Positions 5,455-43,493 of a stretch of 64,000 bases of DNA are shown one piece after another. The stretch is from Candidatus Methanophagales archaeon (lineage in GTDB: Archaea; Halobacteriota; Syntropharchaeia; Alkanophagales; Methanospirareceae), in contig JAUVZJ010000005.1 in NCBI GenBank assembly GCA_030602585.1, forward strand, positions 973-64,972, in the 5' to 3' direction. The notes beneath the pieces are model-generated. The model had not been told where the DNA came from and ran no database searches. It worked only from the letters and a program-made list of their open reading frames with translations. A program made the translations under genes and the position numbers. Each line of letters begins with the position of its first letter. Within the stretch, counting starts at the first letter, position 1.

Positions 5455-6402
5455 ATGAAGAAATACATAACAAAAAGATTGCTTTTATTGATCCCGATTA
5501 TGCTTGGGGCTTCTGTACTCTCCTTTTCCATCCTTTATATTGCTCCTGGAGATCCTGCAGAGCTAATGCTTGAGAGGCAGCTGCAGGGTGCTCCAACTAA
5601 AGAACAGATAGATGCGTTCAAAGAGGAGCATGGATTAAACGATCCAATTCCAATCCAGTTTGCAAGATGGCTTTATAAGATATTGCGTGGTGATCTCGGT
5701 ACATCGCTTAGAACCGAAGAGCCAGTACTAAAGGAGTATCTAAATAGATTTCCCGCTTCCCTTGTGCTATTTCTTCTCTCACAGATAATCTCCATCACAA
5801 TAGCGATTCCTTTAGGAATTATATCGGCAGTAAAACACAACTCGAAGGTGGATCATTTTTCCAGGTTTATGGCAATGTTTGGTGCTTCCATGCCAAATTT
5901 TTGGCTGGGCTTGCTTTTAATTCTTTTCTTTGCGGTTTATTTGGATTGGCTTCCAGCCTTTGGTTATGGAGGGATTACGCACATAATCCTTCCAGCAATA
6001 GCCTTGGGGGTATCAGGATGTGCATCGATCATGCGGCTAATGAGGGCAAGTCTGCTCGAGGTTTTACACCTGGATTATATAAGGACTGCGAGAGCAAAGG
6101 GTTTGTGCGAAAAGCTCATTATAGTAAAACATGCTTTAAAAAATGCGTTGATTCCAGTCGTAACAGTTATTGGCTTACATATCAGTCATCTCATTTCAAG
6201 TATGGTGATAGTCGAGGCGATATTTGCATGGCCCGGAGTTGGCAGATTTTTGATTGAATCGATACATGCAAGAGATTTTCCAGTGATTCAAGGCTTTGTT
6301 TTGATTATTGCAATGTTTTTTGTCTTTGCTAATCTGATCGTAGATATTTCGTATACATACTTGGATCCCAGAATACGATATGAGATGGAGAGGATAAAAT
6401 GA
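5455..6402 (+). CDS. nikB: ABC permease NikB/DppB/OppB family
   Basis: 6 TM segments, APGDP N-terminal motif and an EAA-like loop (IRTARAKGL). Confidence 0.85.
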   Translation: MKKYITKRLLLLIPIMLGASVLSFSILYIAPGDPAELMLERQLQGAPTKEQIDAFKEEHGLNDPIPIQFARWLYKILRGDLGTSLRTEEPVLKEYLNRFPASLVLFLLSQIISITIAIPLGIISAVKHNSKVDHFSRFMAMFGASMPNFWLGLLLILFFAVYLDWLPAFGYGGITHIILPAIALGVSGCASIMRLMRASLLEVLHLDYIRTARAKGLCEKLIIVKHALKNALIPVVTVIGLHISHLISSMVIVEAIFAWPGVGRFLIESIHARDFPVIQGFVLIIAMFFVFANLIVDISYTYLDPRIRYEMERIK

Positions 6403-17054: not shown

Positions 17055-17819
17055 ATGATTGCAAGAGTGATAAAAGCTATGCTTGCGGTATGGGAACGTG
17101 AAATGCATGAGTACATAAGCAATCTGCATGTAAATGCCATGCGTCTTGCAGTAGAGCCATTGCTATTCATTTTTATCTTTGGAATGGGACTTGGCAAGCG
17201 TGTGGTGATTGGAGACGTAAATTATTTATATTTCCTGGCACCGGGCATACTGTTTATGGTTGCGGTAAACAACAGTTATATGACAATATCAATGAGGCTC
17301 ATGATTGCACGAGACTGGGACAAAACATTGATTACTGCGCTCAGTGCTCCGATAAAACCCTTTGAGATTGTTCTTGGCTATGTGTTTGCAGGTGTAACTC
17401 AAGCACTGGCTGCATGCGCTATCTTTATTGTGTTGATGAATTATTTTTTAGGAATACCCTTTGGTTCCGTTTCCCTGATAGTGTTACTTATCATAGCAAC
17501 AGCCGCATTTTTCTCTTCCCTCGGAGTAGCGATATCCATGGTGCTGGATAATCCACATCATCTAATGGTTGTCACATCGCTTGTTGTCATGCCCATGAGT
17601 TTTTTTTGTGGGATATTTATACCTGTTACTGATCTTCCGAACTGGGTGCAGCCCGTTATAGAGGCAATTCCTCTTACCGTGGCGGTACAAGCAGCCAGAG
17701 CGATAGCATTATCAACGGGCAACCCTTATCTATGGCAAAATCTGGCGTATATTATCGCATTTACAATCGCAGTATTTTTGATAGGGTTGCATCTCTTTAA
17801 GAAAAAAGTAATTACTTGA
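17055..17819 (+). CDS. ABC-2 family permease
   Basis: 6 TM segments with ABC-2 topology. Translationally coupled to the 16127-17053 ATPase. Confidence 0.7.
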   Translation: MIARVIKAMLAVWEREMHEYISNLHVNAMRLAVEPLLFIFIFGMGLGKRVVIGDVNYLYFLAPGILFMVAVNNSYMTISMRLMIARDWDKTLITALSAPIKPFEIVLGYVFAGVTQALAACAIFIVLMNYFLGIPFGSVSLIVLLIIATAAFFSSLGVAISMVLDNPHHLMVVTSLVVMPMSFFCGIFIPVTDLPNWVQPVIEAIPLTVAVQAARAIALSTGNPYLWQNLAYIIAFTIAVFLIGLHLFKKKVIT

Positions 17820-17934
17820 AGACAGTCAGGGAAAGAGCACACCCTAAAATAAAAAGAAGGACATGCTCATCAATATGAATAACAATCCAGAAATTTTCGT
17901 TATTGTTTCACTGTTCACTTTTTATCTTTTATAA

Positions 17935-19648
17935 CCTGAATTTTAGCGATTATAGGCACCATGTATAAATTTGTCGACACCCATCGCGTTCATAAGCAAT
18001 TCTTGCTTTTTGGTGGCTCTTGTGAGTTTACCTCTCACCTTACCTTTATAGGAATATTCAACAAGAGTGAGATTCTTTAGTTCATCCACTGCCAGATCAA
18101 CCGACATATCTATGTTAGCGTTCTTCAACCGGAATTTGACAATTGTTCTTAGCAGGTATGCAAGAAACACGATTGTGAGATACGCATCAATCCGTTCCGG
18201 GCGCTGATAACGAATGGGTCCTAAAGAGAGTACACCTTTCAAGCATCTGAAGGCTTTTTCGATCTCATCCCGCTGGAAATAAATCGTGAAAACATTTTTT
18301 GCACTTATCCTTTGGTCTGTGCAGAACATTAGAAAACGACCGTCGATGAATTCTTCCTGTTGTACAAGATTATCATCCACCCTAAAACCTCGTCTCCCTC
18401 TTTGTTTGACGATCACAGATGAAATGACACCTTTAAGTTCATTAACACGATTCTTATCGGTTGTTTCACTCAACTCTTTGATCATCATGTCTCGATTTGC
18501 TTTTTCCATCGCTTTTTGTGTGGGATTTGAAACAACAACTATCAAACCGGATTGCCCATAAAGGGTTCCTTTCCTACCTTTAACATACACCATCCCTTCG
18601 GAAGACCGTTTCACGGCATTCTCCCATGTAGAAACATCTTCGTCATTCCAGTAAGATAGTTCACTGAACACTTCGCTGCGGGTTTCAGGACAGCAGCCGA
18701 TGATATGGAAACCTTTTTTCCGGGCTATCTTGATGTTTCGCGTGCTCAACATTCCTCTGTCTACAATCATCGGAATACCACGATATCCCCATGATTCGAG
18801 TGCTGCAAGCATATCCTCCATCGTAAGCGTATCGTTCTTAGAACCGGGGATAGCACCGCATCTAACCGGGAAGCCATGCTCTCCTGAAATTACAAATCCA
18901 ACACCAATTGTCCATTTGCCTCGCTGCGATAGAGTATAGCCTTTCTCTGAATAACTACATCCGTTACCAAAGTAAGTTATCTTTGTAACGTCGTAGAACA
19001 GATGCTTTCTGCTTTCGGAATCAAGCTTTTGACATCTTTCTGCCATTGTCCGCTGTATGGCAAGCCCGACGCCGGATTTAATTCCGTTTTTAACGAAACA
19101 GAGTTGGCTAAGACCGTTGTCCAAATCCACTCTGGTTAGTGTCTGTTGTTTATAGCCTTCCCACTCTGCTAAAGGTGTATTATTTACCCAAGCAGCAGCC
19201 TTTTCCAGAGAAAGTCTATTACATACTTGATTCATTACAAGAGCAAGAACGGGGAAACTTTGAGAAGGACAGTGCTTCTCCAATGCCTTCCGTAGATCAA
19301 TATATTGTGCTGCATCATAATACAGTGCAAGCTTTCCTACAGGGACAGCTCGTTCAATCTCTTCCATTTTATGAGCGGGTGGTATGAGCTTCTCGTTCCC
19401 CTCTTCTCCGGTATCCACACCGAGATACTGAATCACTCTCTGCCTTGTGCTTTTTTCTCTTTGTCCCAATAATTCTCGACTAGATATCTATATTTCCTAC
19501 CTTCCTTTATTTTGGTGCGTATGAATGTCATGGTGCCTAATAGGCACTATGTCATATAAATAGTTTGCGTAATTATCGCTTTATTGTCGATAATAACTCG
19601 GATATGTAGAGATTCAAGGCATGGTGCCTATAAAGCCAAAAATTCAGG
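17935..19648 (-). mobile_element. insertion sequence (~1.71 kb) with ~29-bp imperfect terminal inverted repeats, IS4/IS1634-like
   Basis: Left end cctgaattttagcgattataggcaccatg. The right-end reverse complement is cctgaatttttggctttataggcaccatg. There are subterminal CATGGTGCC repeats and a single 508-aa transposase ORF. No matching target-site duplication (flanks ttataa / atcagt). Confidence 0.75.
17943..19469 (-). CDS. DDE transposase (IS4 superfamily, IS1634-like)
   Basis: 508 aa, fills the IS between the IRs. The family call is from overall size and organisation and is not verified by search. Confidence 0.6.
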   Translation of the reverse strand: MGQREKSTRQRVIQYLGVDTGEEGNEKLIPPAHKMEEIERAVPVGKLALYYDAAQYIDLRKALEKHCPSQSFPVLALVMNQVCNRLSLEKAAAWVNNTPLAEWEGYKQQTLTRVDLDNGLSQLCFVKNGIKSGVGLAIQRTMAERCQKLDSESRKHLFYDVTKITYFGNGCSYSEKGYTLSQRGKWTIGVGFVISGEHGFPVRCGAIPGSKNDTLTMEDMLAALESWGYRGIPMIVDRGMLSTRNIKIARKKGFHIIGCCPETRSEVFSELSYWNDEDVSTWENAVKRSSEGMVYVKGRKGTLYGQSGLIVVVSNPTQKAMEKANRDMMIKELSETTDKNRVNELKGVISSVIVKQRGRRGFRVDDNLVQQEEFIDGRFLMFCTDQRISAKNVFTIYFQRDEIEKAFRCLKGVLSLGPIRYQRPERIDAYLTIVFLAYLLRTIVKFRLKNANIDMSVDLAVDELKNLTLVEYSYKGKVRGKLTRATKKQELLMNAMGVDKFIHGAYNR

Positions 19649-19960
19649 ATCAGTAGTGATAAAACCAATAGATTCGCGGACCTTTCCACTATCTTCTGCA
19701 ATGTTATACCCGTTTACATATGCAGTTCCCTCTGTGGGTAAAATCAGCGTGCATAATATTTTTATAAACGTAGTCTTGCCAGCTCCATTTGGTCCGAGAA
19801 TACCAAACAATTCCCCTTTTCCAATCTTTATGTTCACCATCTCTACCGCCGTTATCTCATCTTTTCTAAAGGGATGCATGAGAAAGTCGGTAAATCCTTT
19901 TTGCAGTGCGAACTTCTTCGTTAGGTCATACGTTTCAATAGAATATTCCAATATTTTCAT
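19628..19960 (-). pseudogene. ABC-2 ATPase N-terminal fragment truncated by the IS
   Basis: Walker A GPNGAGKTT is present, and the protein ends ...ITTDPEFLAL with the last 7 codons encoded by the IS terminus. Confidence 0.7.
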
Positions 19961-20120
19961 CCTCCTATCGTTTTAACATTTACAAATTGAATTTTAAATT
20001 AAAATATATAAATATTGATAGATTATCATCAAATGTTATATTATGAGAAAGAATTAACAAGGAGGAAGGGGTGAAAAAAATATTTATGTCCACTATGGCA
20101 AGGAGGGCCAAGATAATAAC

Positions 20121-20245
20121 ATGACATCGAGCACTAACCATATCTGGAATAGGAACAAAGAGAGCGGAAATAAAAGCACAATACAAAAAGTTTATCGGGA
20201 GGAAAATTCTATTTATTATTATCTCTTCTCTCATCTTAATTTTTG
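20121..20245 (+). pseudogene. BtuC-type permease N-terminal stub (frameshifted)
   Basis: About 85% nucleotide identity to the 5' end of the gene at 42396 ([29 protein letters not shown] across a frameshift). It runs directly into the truncated ABC ATPase. Confidence 0.6.
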
Positions 20246-21178
20246 AGACCAACTTCTGGAACTGCTTTAATCAATGGATTTGACATAATCAAAGAACCTG
20301 ACAAGGTAAGGAAATCAATTGGGATTGTTTTTCAAGATCCGAGTTCCGACGACGACCTCACAGCTTATGAAAACATGGAGTTCCACGCCATGATATATGA
20401 TATTCCCGTGGAAAGAGCGAATATATTAGAGCTTTTGAGGCTGGTTGAGCTTGATGACAAGGCAGACAGCTTTGTCAAGACTTTTTCTGGAGGCATGAAA
20501 CGGAGGTTAGAGCTCACACGTGGTTTATTGCATCATCCAAAGGTATTGTTTCTGGATGAGCCTACTTTGGGCTTGGACACGCAGACGAGACGCAAAATCT
20601 GGGACTATATACGTGAAATAGCGAACGAAAAAGAAATGACGATCATTCTCACAACTCACTACATGGAAGAAGCTGATAGCATTTGTGACAGAATAGCAAT
20701 AATAGATGAAGGTAAAATAAAGGCGGTTGGCAGCCCGAAGGAGATGAAAAACAATTTGAACGATTATAAATTTATTATAAAACTCATTAAAAACTATGAT
20801 TATTTAGTGTTCGAGAAGGAACTTGAAAGAAGCATTAAGCGTAGAGAACTTGGGGTTGATATAACGGATGTCAATATAACTCAAAACAATGCTGGGAATG
20901 GAGTTAGCGCTAACGAAGTTGTGTTGGAAATCGACCTGAGAATCAATAACGAAAGTAAAAACTCCGATGCTTTACTGATAGATGCTCTTATTTCAGTCAA
21001 AGATGCCTTAAAAGAGTTCAAAAACTTCGAGATAACCACTATTGATTTACACAAACCAACCTTAGATGATGTTTTTATACACAATACGGGTAAAACACTC
21101 CGAGATGAGAGGGCACCACCGGATCGTAGATTGCGAATGGTTGCGAGCAAAATGACATCCGGAGTGAGAATAAGATAA
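20243..21178 (+). pseudogene. ABC-2 exporter ATPase lacking N-terminus and Walker A
   Basis: Begins at the equivalent of residue ~73 (PTSGTALINGFD...) with only a TTG start. Signature FSGGMKRR and Walker B LFLDEPT are present. Confidence 0.65.
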
Positions 21179-21179
21179 G

Positions 21180-22189
21180 ATGGTAAATATAAAGGCGATC
21201 TATATCATTTGGCTGCGGGGAATAAAGTTGTCTTCGAGATATAAGGTAGGTTTCATTAGTCATTTGGGGCAGCCACTACTTTGGCTGCTTCTCCTGGGTA
21301 CAGGGCTTAGAGGCTCGGTACGCATGGGTAGTATGGGTTTAGCGGAGTCAACGGGATAGATTACATGACTTTTATGTTACCTGGAATAATAGGAATGAGC
21401 CTCCTCTTTTCCTCGATGATGGGCGGAATGAGAATTTTGTGGGACAAGAAATTTGGATTTTTAAAAGAGATGATGGTGGCGCCTATATCTACCTGAATTT
21501 TAGCGATTATAGGCACCATGTACAAATTTATCAATCTCCAACGCTTTCATAAGTAATAATCGCTTCTTAGTAGCTCTTTATTTTGGTGCGTATGAATGAC
21601 ATGGTGCCTAATAGGCACTATATCATATAAATAGTTTGCGTAATTATCGCCTTATTGGTGATAATAACGCAGGTATGCAGAGATTCAAGGCATGGTGCCT
21701 ATAAAGCCAAAAATTCAGGTATCTAGAGTAAGTATAGTATTGGGAAATAACTTCAGCATTGCCACAATCTCAATTCTGCAGGGAATCATTATAATATTAT
21801 TGGCACCATTGATAGGTGTTGATTTAAACTTATTCTACATACCAATTGCTTTGTTATTCATTTTAATGATTGGATTAACTTTTACAAGTGTTGGTATAGT
21901 ACTATCAACGCAAATGGAGGACATGGGCTCGTTTCAAGGCATACAAACATTCTTGACTCTTCCTCTTTTCCTTTTATCAAGCGCATTTTTCCCCGTAACT
22001 AAACTGCCCTATCCAATCCAAATAATAGCTTACTTTAACCCTCTGTTCTACGGAGTTGATGGTTTGCATGGTGCATTAATCGGCGTATCTGCACTGCCGA
22101 TGTGGTTCGACCTTTTGGCAGTAACCGCATTCTGTGCTGGTTTAATATTGTTGAGCGCTTATCTATTCAATAAAAGAGAGGGGATATAA
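21180..22189 (+). pseudogene. ABC-2 permease disrupted by a MITE insertion and frameshifts
   Basis: N-terminal half (MVNIKAIYIIWLRG...LPGIIGMSLLF...LKEMMVAPIS) is in broken frames before 21492. The C-terminal half 21692-22189 reads through from an ATG supplied by the MITE end. Confidence 0.65.
21492..21719. mobile_element. MITE-like internal-deletion derivative of the IS at 17935-19648, with 6-bp target-site duplication TATCTA
   Basis: About 75 bp matching the IS left end plus ~150 bp matching the IS right end (~90% identity). Direct repeats tatcta flank it at 21486-21491 and 21720-21725. Confidence 0.8.
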
Positions 22190-22219
22190 AATGAGCAAGA
22201 TGCACTAAGAATGTCTATC

Positions 22220-22324
22220 GGTGTTGTTTTTCCAGATCCCAGTGTAAACACGGAATTAACAGGTAGAGAAAACTTGGATTTTATTGCCAGAATGTACAAA
22301 AAGCTCGCCCATTCCTAAAACATG
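22220..22324 (+). pseudogene. short ABC ATPase internal fragment
   Basis: MSIGVVFPDPSVNTELTGRENLDFIARMYKK matches the Q-loop region of ABC-2 ATPases (compare SIGIVFQDPSSDDDLTAYENMEFHAMIYD). Confidence 0.5.
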
Positions 22325-22578
22325 CTGCATCCACCTTTCATCCCATCCAGATGGAAACTCAGAAATCCTAATGTGGAATTTTTCCACACTTTATTGGATT
22401 TTTTAACATCTTCTATTTTTTTGTTATCTCTTTTTATTTATTATTTGGATAGTTCGATGTATAGAGTCATATTAAAAGATTTTCGGTTTTATTAAAATCA
22501 TACATATTTATATATTGGAATACAAAAAGCATAAAAAAAGGAATTTTGTAAGAATAAAAGGAAGGTGATTAAAAAGAG

Positions 22579-28681: not shown

Positions 28682-28794
28682 GGATGTGGGTAATGAAAGA
28701 CATTCTGAAGTTGGGGGTGTTAGATTTAAGAAAAGGATACTGATTTAAAGTTTAATTATAGGAAACACCAAACAATTTTGTGAAGTGAAGACCT

Positions 28795-40143: not shown

Positions 40144-40323
40144 AATTATTTTCTTACAAAATTCTTTTATTTTATGCTTTTCGTATCTCAATATATATAA
40201 ATATATATGCTTTTAATAAAACCAAAAATCTTTTAATATGATTATGCACATCAAATTAAATGTTATTATATTATCTCAAATGGTTAAAAACAAAGAAGGA
40301 AAAAAAGGAAAGGGTGAGAAAAA

Positions 40324-42399
40324 ATGACATACCACATTAGAAGGGAGATATTGCCATTTACAGCAATTGTAGGGCAGGAGAAGATGAAGAAGGCGCTTAT
40401 TTTGAACGCTATTAACCCGCGTATAGGCGGAGTGCTTATAAGGGGCGAGAAAGGAACGGCGAAGTCCACTGCCGTTCGAGCTCTTGCAGAACTGTTACCA
40501 GAAATCGAGGTGGTTAACGGCTGTCCGTTCAATTGCAATCCTTATGACGAGGGGGAGATGTGCGACCTATGCTATGCGGAAAAAACGAATGGTGAAAATC
40601 TGGAAGCGGCGAAGCGAAGGATGTGGGTCATAGACCTTCCGTTAGGTGCTACCGAGGACAGGGTCGTGGGTTCAATAGACGTTGAAAAGGCAATAAAACA
40701 GGGAATAAAGGCGCTGGAGCCGGGGATATTGGCTGCTGCAAATAGGGGTATTCTCTATATTGACGAGGTAAACCTTCTTGATGACCACGTTGCAGACGTC
40801 ATTTTAGATTCGGCTGCGATGTCAATAAACGTTGTCGAGCGAGAAGGTGTCTCGGTTTCTCATCCATCCAAGTTCATCTTGGTGGGAACGATGAACCCTG
40901 AGGAAGGCGAGCTCAGACCTCAACTTCTGGATAGATTTGGTCTTCAAGCGAGTGTAGAAAGTATAGACGATGCAGAGAAAAGGGTAGAAATAGTGAAGCT
41001 GGTAGAAGGTTTTGAAAGGGACCCGGGAGAGTTCGAAGAGCGATTCGAGGAAAAACAAAAAGAGTTGAGAGAGAAAATTGTGCAAGCGAAACAAATAGTT
41101 AATGAGGTGGAGATTAGCGATGATTTACTGAATCTAACTGCAGATACCTGCATAAAACTCGGCGTCAGGACACACAGAGCTGAAATCGTTATAACCAGAG
41201 CGGCAAAAACGATTGCTGCATTTGATAGCAGAAAGAAAGTCACTTTTGAGGACATAAAAGAGGCGATGGAATTAGCACTTCCGCACAGAATGCGCAGAAA
41301 GCCTTTTGACCCACCAAGTTTGGATACTGAAAAACTCGATGATATGATGTCGGACACAAAAGAGCAGCATAAAGGTGAGAAACAAGAGAATGAGCAAGAG
41401 CAAAGGAAAGAACACGAACATAAACACACCCCCACAAATCCAGAAAGTGAAGATGCTAACAACAATGATGCTGTGAAAGAAACAGAACCACAGAAGGAGT
41501 TTGTTTTTGACATAGGCGACCCGATTGATACCGGAGTAGTAAGGCAAAAACAAAAGAAAGACAGAACATATCGCAGGAAGATTTCCGGAAGAAGAATACC
41601 CACACTCTCTCTTCGTAATAACGGGAAGTATGTGCGCTGTGGATTCCCGAAGGGAGAAATAAAGGACGTTGCACTTGATGCTACGATACGTGCAGCGGCA
41701 CCTTACCAGAAAGAGAGAATGGTTGATTCAGACTTAGCTGTTGTTATCAAAACTCAAGATATTCGAGAGAAGATTCGTGTAGGAAAGGTGTCAACAGCAA
41801 CGATGTTTGTTGTGGATGCCTCTGGTTCAATGGGTGCGAATCGAAGGATGGAGAGTGCAAAAGGTGCTGTTCTCTCTTTATTACTGGATTCGTATCAACA
41901 AAGAGACAAAGTTGGAATGGTTGCGTTTAGAGGTGATCAGGCAGATGTTTTGCTTCCTCTATGTTCAAGCGTAGATTTAGCATATAAAAGCTTGAAGGAA
42001 CTCCCAACTGGCGGAAGAACACCTCTATCAGCAGGTCTGGAAAGGGGATTTAATCTTCTGATGAATGAAAAGCAGAAGGACGAAGGAGCGATACCCGTGC
42101 TGGTGTTAATATCTGACGGTCGTGCAAATGTTTCATCTTCAAATAAAGATATTAAAGTGGAGTTGTTAGCGCTCGCTGAGCAGGCGCGTGCTAAGGGTAT
42201 ACATGTGATTGTGATTGATACCGAAGTAATTAATAAATCGTTCATACAAATGCAGCTTGGATATTGCAGAGATATAGCGAGCTATTCCGGGGGAAAATAT
42301 TATTCCATCGTTGATTTGACATCACAAGCAGTGCATGATATTGTGATTCAGGAGCGAGAGCGAAGTTTATCGAATGATTTGCAGGCTGTTTTGGGATGA
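40324..42399 (+). CDS. Mg-chelatase-type ChlI/ChlD fusion: AAA+ ATPase plus C-terminal von Willebrand A (MIDAS) domain
   Basis: Walker [10 protein letters not shown], ChlI core, acidic linker, and vWA domain [10 protein letters not shown]...LISDGRAN. Confidence 0.8.
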
Positions 42400-43493
42400 A
42401 AATGACGTCAAGCACTGAGACCATATCAGGAACGAGAACAAAGAGCGCCGAAATAAAAGAGCAATACAAAAAGTTTATCGGAAGGAAAATTCTATTTATC
42501 CTTTTTTCCCTCATCCTAATTTTTATTATCGCAGGCATAGCTGCAACACTTGGCTCTTATCCTATCACAGTCACTGAGGTCTACTCAATAATATGGCAGG
42601 GTCTATTTCAAAATCCGGAAACGACAAAAGAGATTGTCGTCTGGAACTTGAGATTGCCACGCATCATAATGGGTATTTTAGCTGGCATAGGGCTTGCAAT
42701 TGCAGGCACGATGATGCAAGGTATTTTAAGAAACCCACTTGCAAGCCCCTTTACGCTGGGAATCGCATCAGGTGCGGGGTTTGGTGCGGCTCTTGCTATC
42801 CTTTTAGGTGCGGGTATTATCGCTGGTGAGACTGGTAAGTATCTCATCATAGTAAATGCGTTTGCCTTTTCTCTCATTCCCACATTTGTTATCATAGGAT
42901 TGACCCGTTACAAAAGAGCTACGCCTGAGACAATGATTCTCGCTGGTATCGCAATGTTATATATCTTTAGCGCGGCGACGACTTTATTAATGTACTTTGC
43001 CGAATCAGAAGCGGTAAAAGCAGCATATTTCTGGATGGTTGGCAGTCTTGGAAAAGCTTCATGGGATGCCATCCTCCCAGTATCTATCATGCTTGCAGGT
43101 TGTGTTCCCCTGCTTCTGTGGAAGTCATGGGATGTCAACGTAATGGGTGCTGGAGATGAAACTGCAAAAAGCTTGGGCGTAAATGTCGAACGAAGCAGAA
43201 TCCTTATATTGGTTATTGCTTCTTTGATGAGCGCAGGCATTGTTTGCTTCACCGGAACCATTGGATTCATAGGATTGGTTGCCCCACACATGTGCCGCAT
43301 GGTTATCGGTGGTGATAACCGGTTTTTAATTCCTGCTTCCGGTTTTTTTGGTGCCGCCCTTCTACTTGGGGCTGATACCCTCGCAAGAACAATCATAGCA
43401 CCTGTAATCCTCCCGGTAGGAGTCTTGACATCCTTCATGGGAGGTCCTTTATTCCTTTACTTGATAATGAGAAAAAGGAGGGAGTTTTGGTGA
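42396..43493 (+). CDS. btuC: FecCD/BtuC-family ABC permease (intact) with ~30-aa N-terminal extension
   Basis: 10 TM FecCD fold ([24 protein letters not shown]). The N-terminus [25 protein letters not shown] is the sequence recurring as stubs elsewhere. Confidence 0.8.

Follow-up and report, generated by a model that had tools for sequence, protein, structure and literature searches.

The window, by which we mean the whole analysed stretch of 64,000 nucleotides, contains an ABC-2 permease gene broken by a 228-bp segment, the ends of which look like those of an insertion sequence (IS) at 17935-19648. The locus raises the question of what this segment is, how it came to lie within the gene, and whether the ATG close to its right end, from which an ORF of 165 aa is read, serves the downstream half-gene as a start of translation. 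As will be argued, a MITE has probably transposed into the permease gene of a Methanophagales (ANME-1)-type archaeon; coordinates of the features involved are given in Table 1.

Table 1. Features of the interrupted permease locus and of the resident IS (window positions)
Feature	Coordinates	Strand	Remarks
Resident IS1634-family IS, 1714 bp	17935-19648	-	transposase gene from 19533 to 17943, minus strand
5′-truncated ABC ATPase gene, partner of the permease	20241-21178	+	without its first ~53 codons (~160 bp), including Walker A
ABC-2 permease pseudogene	21180-22189	+	split by the MITE; in addition a 1-nt deletion at 21353-21355
Target-site duplication TATCTA, left copy	21486-21491	.	
MITE, non-autonomous IS1634-family derivative	21492-21719	.	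BLASTN and sequence reading
IRL, 29-bp left terminal inverted repeat	21492-21520	+	identical to IRL of the IS, 17935-17963
Left arm (IS 1-87)	21492-21578		IRL and ~last 26 transposase codons; 82.8% identity
Right arm (IS 1571-1714)	21576-21719		IRR, transposase upstream region, first 9 transposase codons; 93.75% identity
Transposase promoter-like module kept in the MITE	21600-21631	-	putative function
Residual transposase ATG	21600-21602		with a stub of 11 codons after it
Perfect palindrome GTGCCTATTAGGCAC	21604-21618		repeats the inverted-repeat motif TAGGCAC
TATA-like TTTATATG	21624-21631		minus-strand reading
IRR, 29-bp right terminal inverted repeat	21691-21719	-	identical to IRR of the IS, 19620-19648
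ATG inside IRR	21692-21694		
Mechanical 165-aa ORF	21692-22189	+	10 element/duplication residues (MVPIKPKIQV) and the C-terminal 155 permease residues
Target-site duplication TATCTA, right copy	21720-21725	.	

When the 228-bp segment was compared with the IS by BLASTN within the window, its positions 1-87 aligned with IS 1-87 (17935-18021; E=1e-20) and its positions 85-228 with IS 1571-1714 (19505-19648; E=1e-59), both in the orientation of the IS; chance similarity is effectively ruled out by these values, and the segment is the IS without its interior, IS 88-1570. A sequence-only reading, made before this analysis, had composed the segment of ~75 bp of the left and ~150 bp of the right end of the IS; the derivation from two ends stands, the arm lengths do not, as BLASTN gives 87 and 144 bp, 3 bp of microhomology being shared at the junction where the arms meet. 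There the MITE reads ...GTAGCTC and, across the internal junction, TTTATTTTGG..., the junction-spanning sequence being ...TTAGTAGCTCTTTATTTTGGTG.... The 29-bp termini, CCTGAATTTTAGCGATTATAGGCACCATG and CATGGTGCCTATAAAGCCAAAAATTCAGG, are the same in segment and IS without a mismatch, and IRL and IRR pair at 25 of their 29 positions; a degenerate pattern of the terminus has exactly four matches in the 64 kb, with 0.00 expected, and these are the two ends of the IS and the two ends of the segment. Within the latter, no ORF of at least 50 aa is wholly contained, the only coding remnants of a transposase being the 11-codon stub and the ~26 terminal codons. As single-stranded DNA the segment is predicted to form a long hairpin (-42.9 kcal/mol, z=-7.1), and an Rfam scan of 17500-22500 matched no RNA family. 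A size of 228 bp without transposase coding capacity, terminal inverted repeats that match those of an autonomous element at both 29-bp ends, and a target-site duplication of the length usual in the parent family (6 bp) are features by which a MITE is recognised; they support the view that the segment is MITE-like and arose from an IS1634-family element by internal deletion.

That the direct repeat TATCTA flanks the element had been noted from the sequence alone and is confirmed, the repeated site being present as a single copy at the orthologous loci fetched for comparison, L027 (GCA_049642765.1) and L023. The window aligns contiguously with both, from 20241 to 21489 and again from 21720 to 22194, at 86-92% identity, and a single TATCAA is found at L027 10317-10322 and at L023 ~6305-6310; since these are empty sites, the 6-bp target duplication can be regarded as established. 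Removal in silico of 21492-21725, that is, of the MITE and one TATCTA, brings the permease frame back as ...FGFLKEMMVAPISRVSIVLGNN..., a junction which matches that of intact orthologues exactly; the insertion lies at codon ~104 of the gene. The intact orthologues, found in a homologue search with the repaired protein, are 257-261 aa long and 88-93% identical; their sources are metagenomes and MAGs of Methanophagales and of "Halobacteriota archaeon". Shorter members of the orthologue clusters, P0135, P0139 and P0147 among them, were considered as further MITE-split alleles and rejected, being start-site, contig-end or internal-deletion variants.

The permease gene had also been called decaying, and rightly so: beside the insertion, its 5′ half carries a deletion of one nucleotide (GGG versus GGGG), and the ATPase gene upstream is truncated, unrelated fragments standing in place of its missing 5′ region. 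The 5′ fragment of the permease is closed by a TGA (21494-21496) that comes from IRL, two codons into the MITE. As the G3/G4 difference is seen in one assembly, an error of the consensus is possible there; both point lesions of the neighbourhood, this frameshift and the A6 in the transposase gene (see below), are homopolymer deletions, and the rest of the window contains long intact ORFs.

The interval between IS and MITE is a patchwork of gene fragments. A piece of ~200 bp (20049-20244) takes the place of the first ~160 bp of the ATPase gene, to which it is joined at 20241; it shows homology to FecCD-type permease genes in their 5′ region and has a paralogue at 42399-42524 (82%). On the far side, directly after the permease stop, 22189-22296 contains a ~108-bp fragment of an ABC ATPase gene (81% to L027 7213-7320); 22195-28746, a block of ~6.5 kb which encodes a 457-aa protein with a PGF-CTERM-like tail, ORFs of 399 and 405 aa and more ORFs, is without counterpart at the syntenic L027 locus, synteny being back at 28747. 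Further, an inverted repeat of ~66-90 nt (22450-22539 and 40167-40258; 83-86% complementary), the arms of which are 17.6 kb apart, flanks a block whose arrangement differs from that in L027; the arms could be upstream regions that were duplicated, or could mark where an inversion or insertion begins and ends.

The resident IS is a member of the IS1634 family: its transposase matches NCBIfam NF033559 with 201.2 bits (cutoff 100) over profile positions 1-482 of 483, as well as Pfam DDE_Tnp_1, and its ends read CCTGAATT..., fitting C-----YT. A variant YREK motif of the catalytic domain counts among the marks of the family. Elements of this family are 1500-2000 bp long, have C-----YT ends and 5-6 bp AT-rich direct repeats (PMC2266710), and are distributed preferentially among Euryarchaeota (De Palmenaer et al. 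2008, PMC2266710); the length of 1714 bp, the ends, and the 6-bp AT-rich duplications around the MITE and the relatives of the IS agree with this description. The transposase gene has suffered a 1-nt homopolymer deletion (T6 on the plus strand, A6 on the coding strand, 19451-19456), and its first ~29 codons are in one frame, the remainder in another. Where the resident IS has A6, two full-length relatives (L014 and L020) have the 7-nt AAAAAGA, and in all relatives the transposase, of 526-537 aa and starting M(T/P/S)FIRTKIK..., is encoded by one continuous ORF; an independent Logan contig (L001), 100% identical to the resident IS, has the same A6, and the identical IS is contained in SRR14872667. 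On the coding strand the A6 is followed by G, and AAAAAAG is a classic slippery sequence; frameshifting or slippage at this site could provide full-length transposase at a low level. No target-site duplication surrounds the resident IS (TTATAA at 17929-17934 versus ATCAGT at 19649-19654), and its right end adjoins an ABC ATPase gene on the minus strand that is reduced to its first ~100 codons (19649-20001); in L023, the orthologue of this gene is situated 3′ of the permease gene, in convergent orientation. The lack of a duplication together with the cut gene points to an IS-associated rearrangement, either a deletion or a translocation.

Whether the resident copy gave rise to the MITE can be judged from the 24 substitutions between them, of which nine fall on the 144 bp of the right arm (6%) and 15 on the 87 bp of the left arm (17%). 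The latter are distributed unevenly, 13 of the 15 lying within positions 42-87 (~28% divergence there), so that identity is ~95% in the first 41 bp and ~72% after; part of the stretch 42-87 is closer to the IS lineages L004 and L008 than to the resident IS. In a tree of right arms the window MITE is the sister of the window IS, which indicates that it belongs to the resident-IS lineage, while the 17% divergence of the left arm indicates that the resident IS is not its direct parent. The earlier statement that the MITE derives from "the" IS has therefore to be narrowed; it is correct for the IS1634-family lineage, not for a fresh derivative of the copy at hand. As the transposase of the resident IS, the only full-length one in the window, is frameshifted, the helper may be another copy of the IS.

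The distribution of such elements was surveyed by a scan for the termini in 185k species-representative genomes (one genome per species) and in JGI metagenome contigs, with classification of the loci by BLAST. The genomes contain five loci, four in Methanophagales MAGs and one in a "Halobacteriota archaeon" MAG, and the metagenomes contributed 16 further ones. L014 and L020 are full-length relatives of 1725-1726 bp, 85% identical and with the duplication ATGTAA; other loci include decayed IS fragments; and short two-ended elements occur with 196 bp (L006), 248 bp (L005), 249 bp (L003, L012) and 280 bp (L007, L022), related to the window MITE and carrying duplications of their own (CTGAAA, TTAGTA, TTATCAA). 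More distant full-length relatives also have 6-bp duplications (L029, TTTTGA; L032, ATATTA). L003 and L012 occupy different sites although they are 99-100% identical, and a single MAG contains two copies, L005 and L006, from which it follows that the short form is mobile in this family. Non-autonomous mobilisation in trans, for which the 228-bp element had been offered as evidence, is accordingly upheld in so far as related MITEs are concerned, by their different sites and duplications; the 228-bp variant itself lends it no such support, being found as a single copy in the 64-kb window and not at all in the 185k species-representative genomes or the JGI metagenome contigs. Most other MITEs of the family are intergenic or lie within genes of other mobile elements, and among the divergent IS relatives L029-L033 no parent of the L003/L005 clade was found.

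Apart from its ends, the MITE has retained a subterminal module of the IS. The true start codon of the resident transposase gene, an ATG at 19533 (minus strand), follows directly on the palindrome GTGCCTATTAGGCAC; TTTATATG is located ~29 nt upstream of this ATG and is itself preceded by a purine-rich, BRE-like stretch. All MITE lineages keep the order of TATA-like sequence, palindrome and ATG, as do relatives of the IS with transposase identities of 66-77%, and judged from its sequence the module resembles an archaeal promoter of the leaderless type, joined to an operator. In the window MITE it faces leftward; it reads antisense to the permease and points away from the 165-aa ORF.

The right breakpoint is common to all MITE lineages (L003, L005, L006, L007, L012, L018 and L022): it falls at IS 1566-1571, immediately behind transposase codon 9 and beside the TATA-palindrome-ATG module, and the left breakpoints vary (41, ~87, ~105 and 128). 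The MITE lineages do not form one group in the right-arm tree. The shared breakpoint may reflect either a common origin with homogenisation of the arms or a deletion hotspot. Two more far-reaching readings are that it stems from a recurrent, mechanism-driven genesis of MITEs at a pseudo-end or hotspot, not from random deletion, and that the promoter or the inverted-repeat ATG affects flanking ANME-1 genes in a regulatory or coding sense; such readings appear distinctly improbable.

A short element with a duplication around it need not have arrived short. A full-length IS could have inserted into the permease gene, with formation of the TATCTA repeats, and subsequently have lost its interior by a microhomology-mediated deletion, leaving a remnant that never moved as a MITE; the 3 bp shared by the arms at their junction would be in keeping with such an event, as would a neighbourhood full of deletion and rearrangement scars and the fact that the 228-bp variant is known from a single copy. 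We nevertheless consider this unlikely. From branch-specific substitution counts (window, L027, and L023 as outgroup), dN/dS on the window branch is ~0.18 in each half of the permease and 0.08 in the ATPase remnant, values that resemble those of the intact lineage; purifying selection must therefore have acted on the permease along nearly the entire branch, which makes the insertion recent. With no relaxed selection on this branch, the divergence of the arms from the IS (6% and 17%, ~28% in positions 42-87) is too great to have arisen in place, which argues, although a single copy of the 228-bp variant was found, that the MITE was probably already short when it arrived. The MITE lineage is older than its insertion into the permease. 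Loss of the interior in situ is also at odds with the existence of mobile sister MITE lineages that share the architecture and the right-hand breakpoint.

With arrival of an already-short MITE as the preferred reading, the 165-aa ORF at its right end has to be accounted for. Its frame contains a TAA at 21665-21667, the next start codon is the ATG in IRR, and the product begins with MVPIKPKIQVSR; in public NCBI-source annotation the ORF is called as a protein (P0019) with this very ATG as its start. The assertion of the sequence-only reading that the half-gene initiates there is correct as regards the formal start of the ORF; actual use of the codon is not borne out, as it is preceded by a 3-nt SD-like match only and the promoter-like module faces away. 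It is conceivable that a functional half-permease is made from the ATG in IRR, possibly with transcription leading out of the element: the ORF is open, in frame and called on a public contig, the TATA-like sequence of the right arm is nearly symmetric, making some rightward initiation possible, and there is no excess of non-synonymous change in the 3′ half. Yet conservation of the 5′ half equals that of the 3′ half, and their equal dN/dS reflects the recency of the insertion and not selection on the 3′ half. Agreement of the ATG with the frame of the permease 3′ half has a chance of one in three; the codon belongs to CACCATG, a motif that recurs at both ends of the element and at the start of the transposase. 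The short SD-like match stands against matches of at least 4 nt in about half of a crude set of window genes, a comparison that is weakly informative because the other half of that set also lacks them. BRE-like stretch, TATA-like sequence, palindrome and ATG are oriented leftward, other MITEs of the family are mostly not so configured, and the product covers positions 91-209 of the 211-position ABC2_membrane domain, leaving out positions 1-90, next to a partner ATPase devoid of Walker A. Recruitment of the half-gene is, on this evidence, very improbable. A functional start borne by a MITE would be recognised by transcription, translation or selection; neither the SD-like match, nor the orientation of the promoter-like module, nor dN/dS points to one at the ATG in IRR. 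The idea of a mobile element providing a translation start reduces, with half a domain, a truncated ATPase and halves alike in dN/dS, to the mechanical definition of an ORF, and the 165-aa product appears to be without function. The "ABC transporter permease" of 165 aa is a pseudogene fragment whose start codon comes from a transposon end, and should be annotated so.

That the 228-bp segment owes its likeness to the IS to chance or is an assembly chimera of IS ends is hardly conceivable, since, repeats being hard to assemble in MAGs notwithstanding, the E-values (1e-59 and 1e-20) speak against chance, the 24 substitutions against a collapsed IS copy, and both the perfect 6-bp duplication, at a site of which the orthologues have one copy, and the homologous MITEs in independent assemblies against a chimera.

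The course of events favoured here is thus transposition of an IS1634-family MITE into codon ~104 of the permease gene. The element would have kept what the transposase requires in cis, namely both 29-bp repeats and, presumably, the subterminal TATA-palindrome-ATG module, for which a role as promoter and operator seems plausible. A transposase of the family, probably supplied in trans, would have moved it by cut-and-paste or copy-in, giving rise to the 6-bp AT-rich duplication typical of the family. The insertion would have inactivated the permease, IRL presenting the upstream fragment with an immediate stop codon, and the ATG of IRR would have come to lie in frame with the downstream fragment by chance, with the consequence that ORF finders report a 165-aa "protein".

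The events at this locus are ordinary mobile-element biology and pose no new mechanistic question; their significance lies mainly in annotation and in the genome biology of ANME-1, in that an IS1634-type IS which is active, or was so until recently, occurs in Methanophagales genomes alongside a gene-breaking MITE family. A recent study of ANME-1 genomics employed ISEScan with short IS elements filtered out and does not mention MITEs in its text (PMC13385816), and our literature search found no description of MITEs in ANME-1. Among characterised ISs, those of the IS1634 family resemble the resident element in the match to the family HMM, the 1714 bp with C-----YT ends and the AT-rich duplications of 5-6 bp; they differ in that the MITE encodes no transposase and the resident IS is frameshifted and devoid of a duplication. 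The closest counterparts of the MITE are in Methanosarcina: M. barkeri has an ISMba11-derived MITE of 247 bp in 23 copies (IR 20 bp, DR 6 bp), and M. acetivorans an ISMac10-derived one of 249 bp (Kamoun et al. 2013, PMC3852290). Compared by description, these and the window MITE alike derive from an IS1634-family parent, measure ~230-250 bp, end in inverted repeats of ~20-29 bp and have a direct repeat of 6 bp, and the hosts are in each case methane-metabolising euryarchaea; the host in our case is, however, of the Methanophagales/ANME-1 type, and the 64 kb contain one copy. The element is, then, an IS1634-derived archaeal MITE of an already-known type, from a lineage for which MITEs seem not to have been reported before. 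Prokaryotic MITEs that lie within genes and create fusions or new ORF ends are represented by the Rickettsia RPEs, Coxiella QMITE1 and ERIC/BOX (review PMC10969869); like these, the window MITE adds codons to a host ORF, a stop to the 5′ part and an ATG with nine codons to the 3′ part. RPE-type insertions, however, are in frame and leave one continuous, apparently functional protein, whereas the permease gene described here is split and frameshifted, and its operon partner is truncated.
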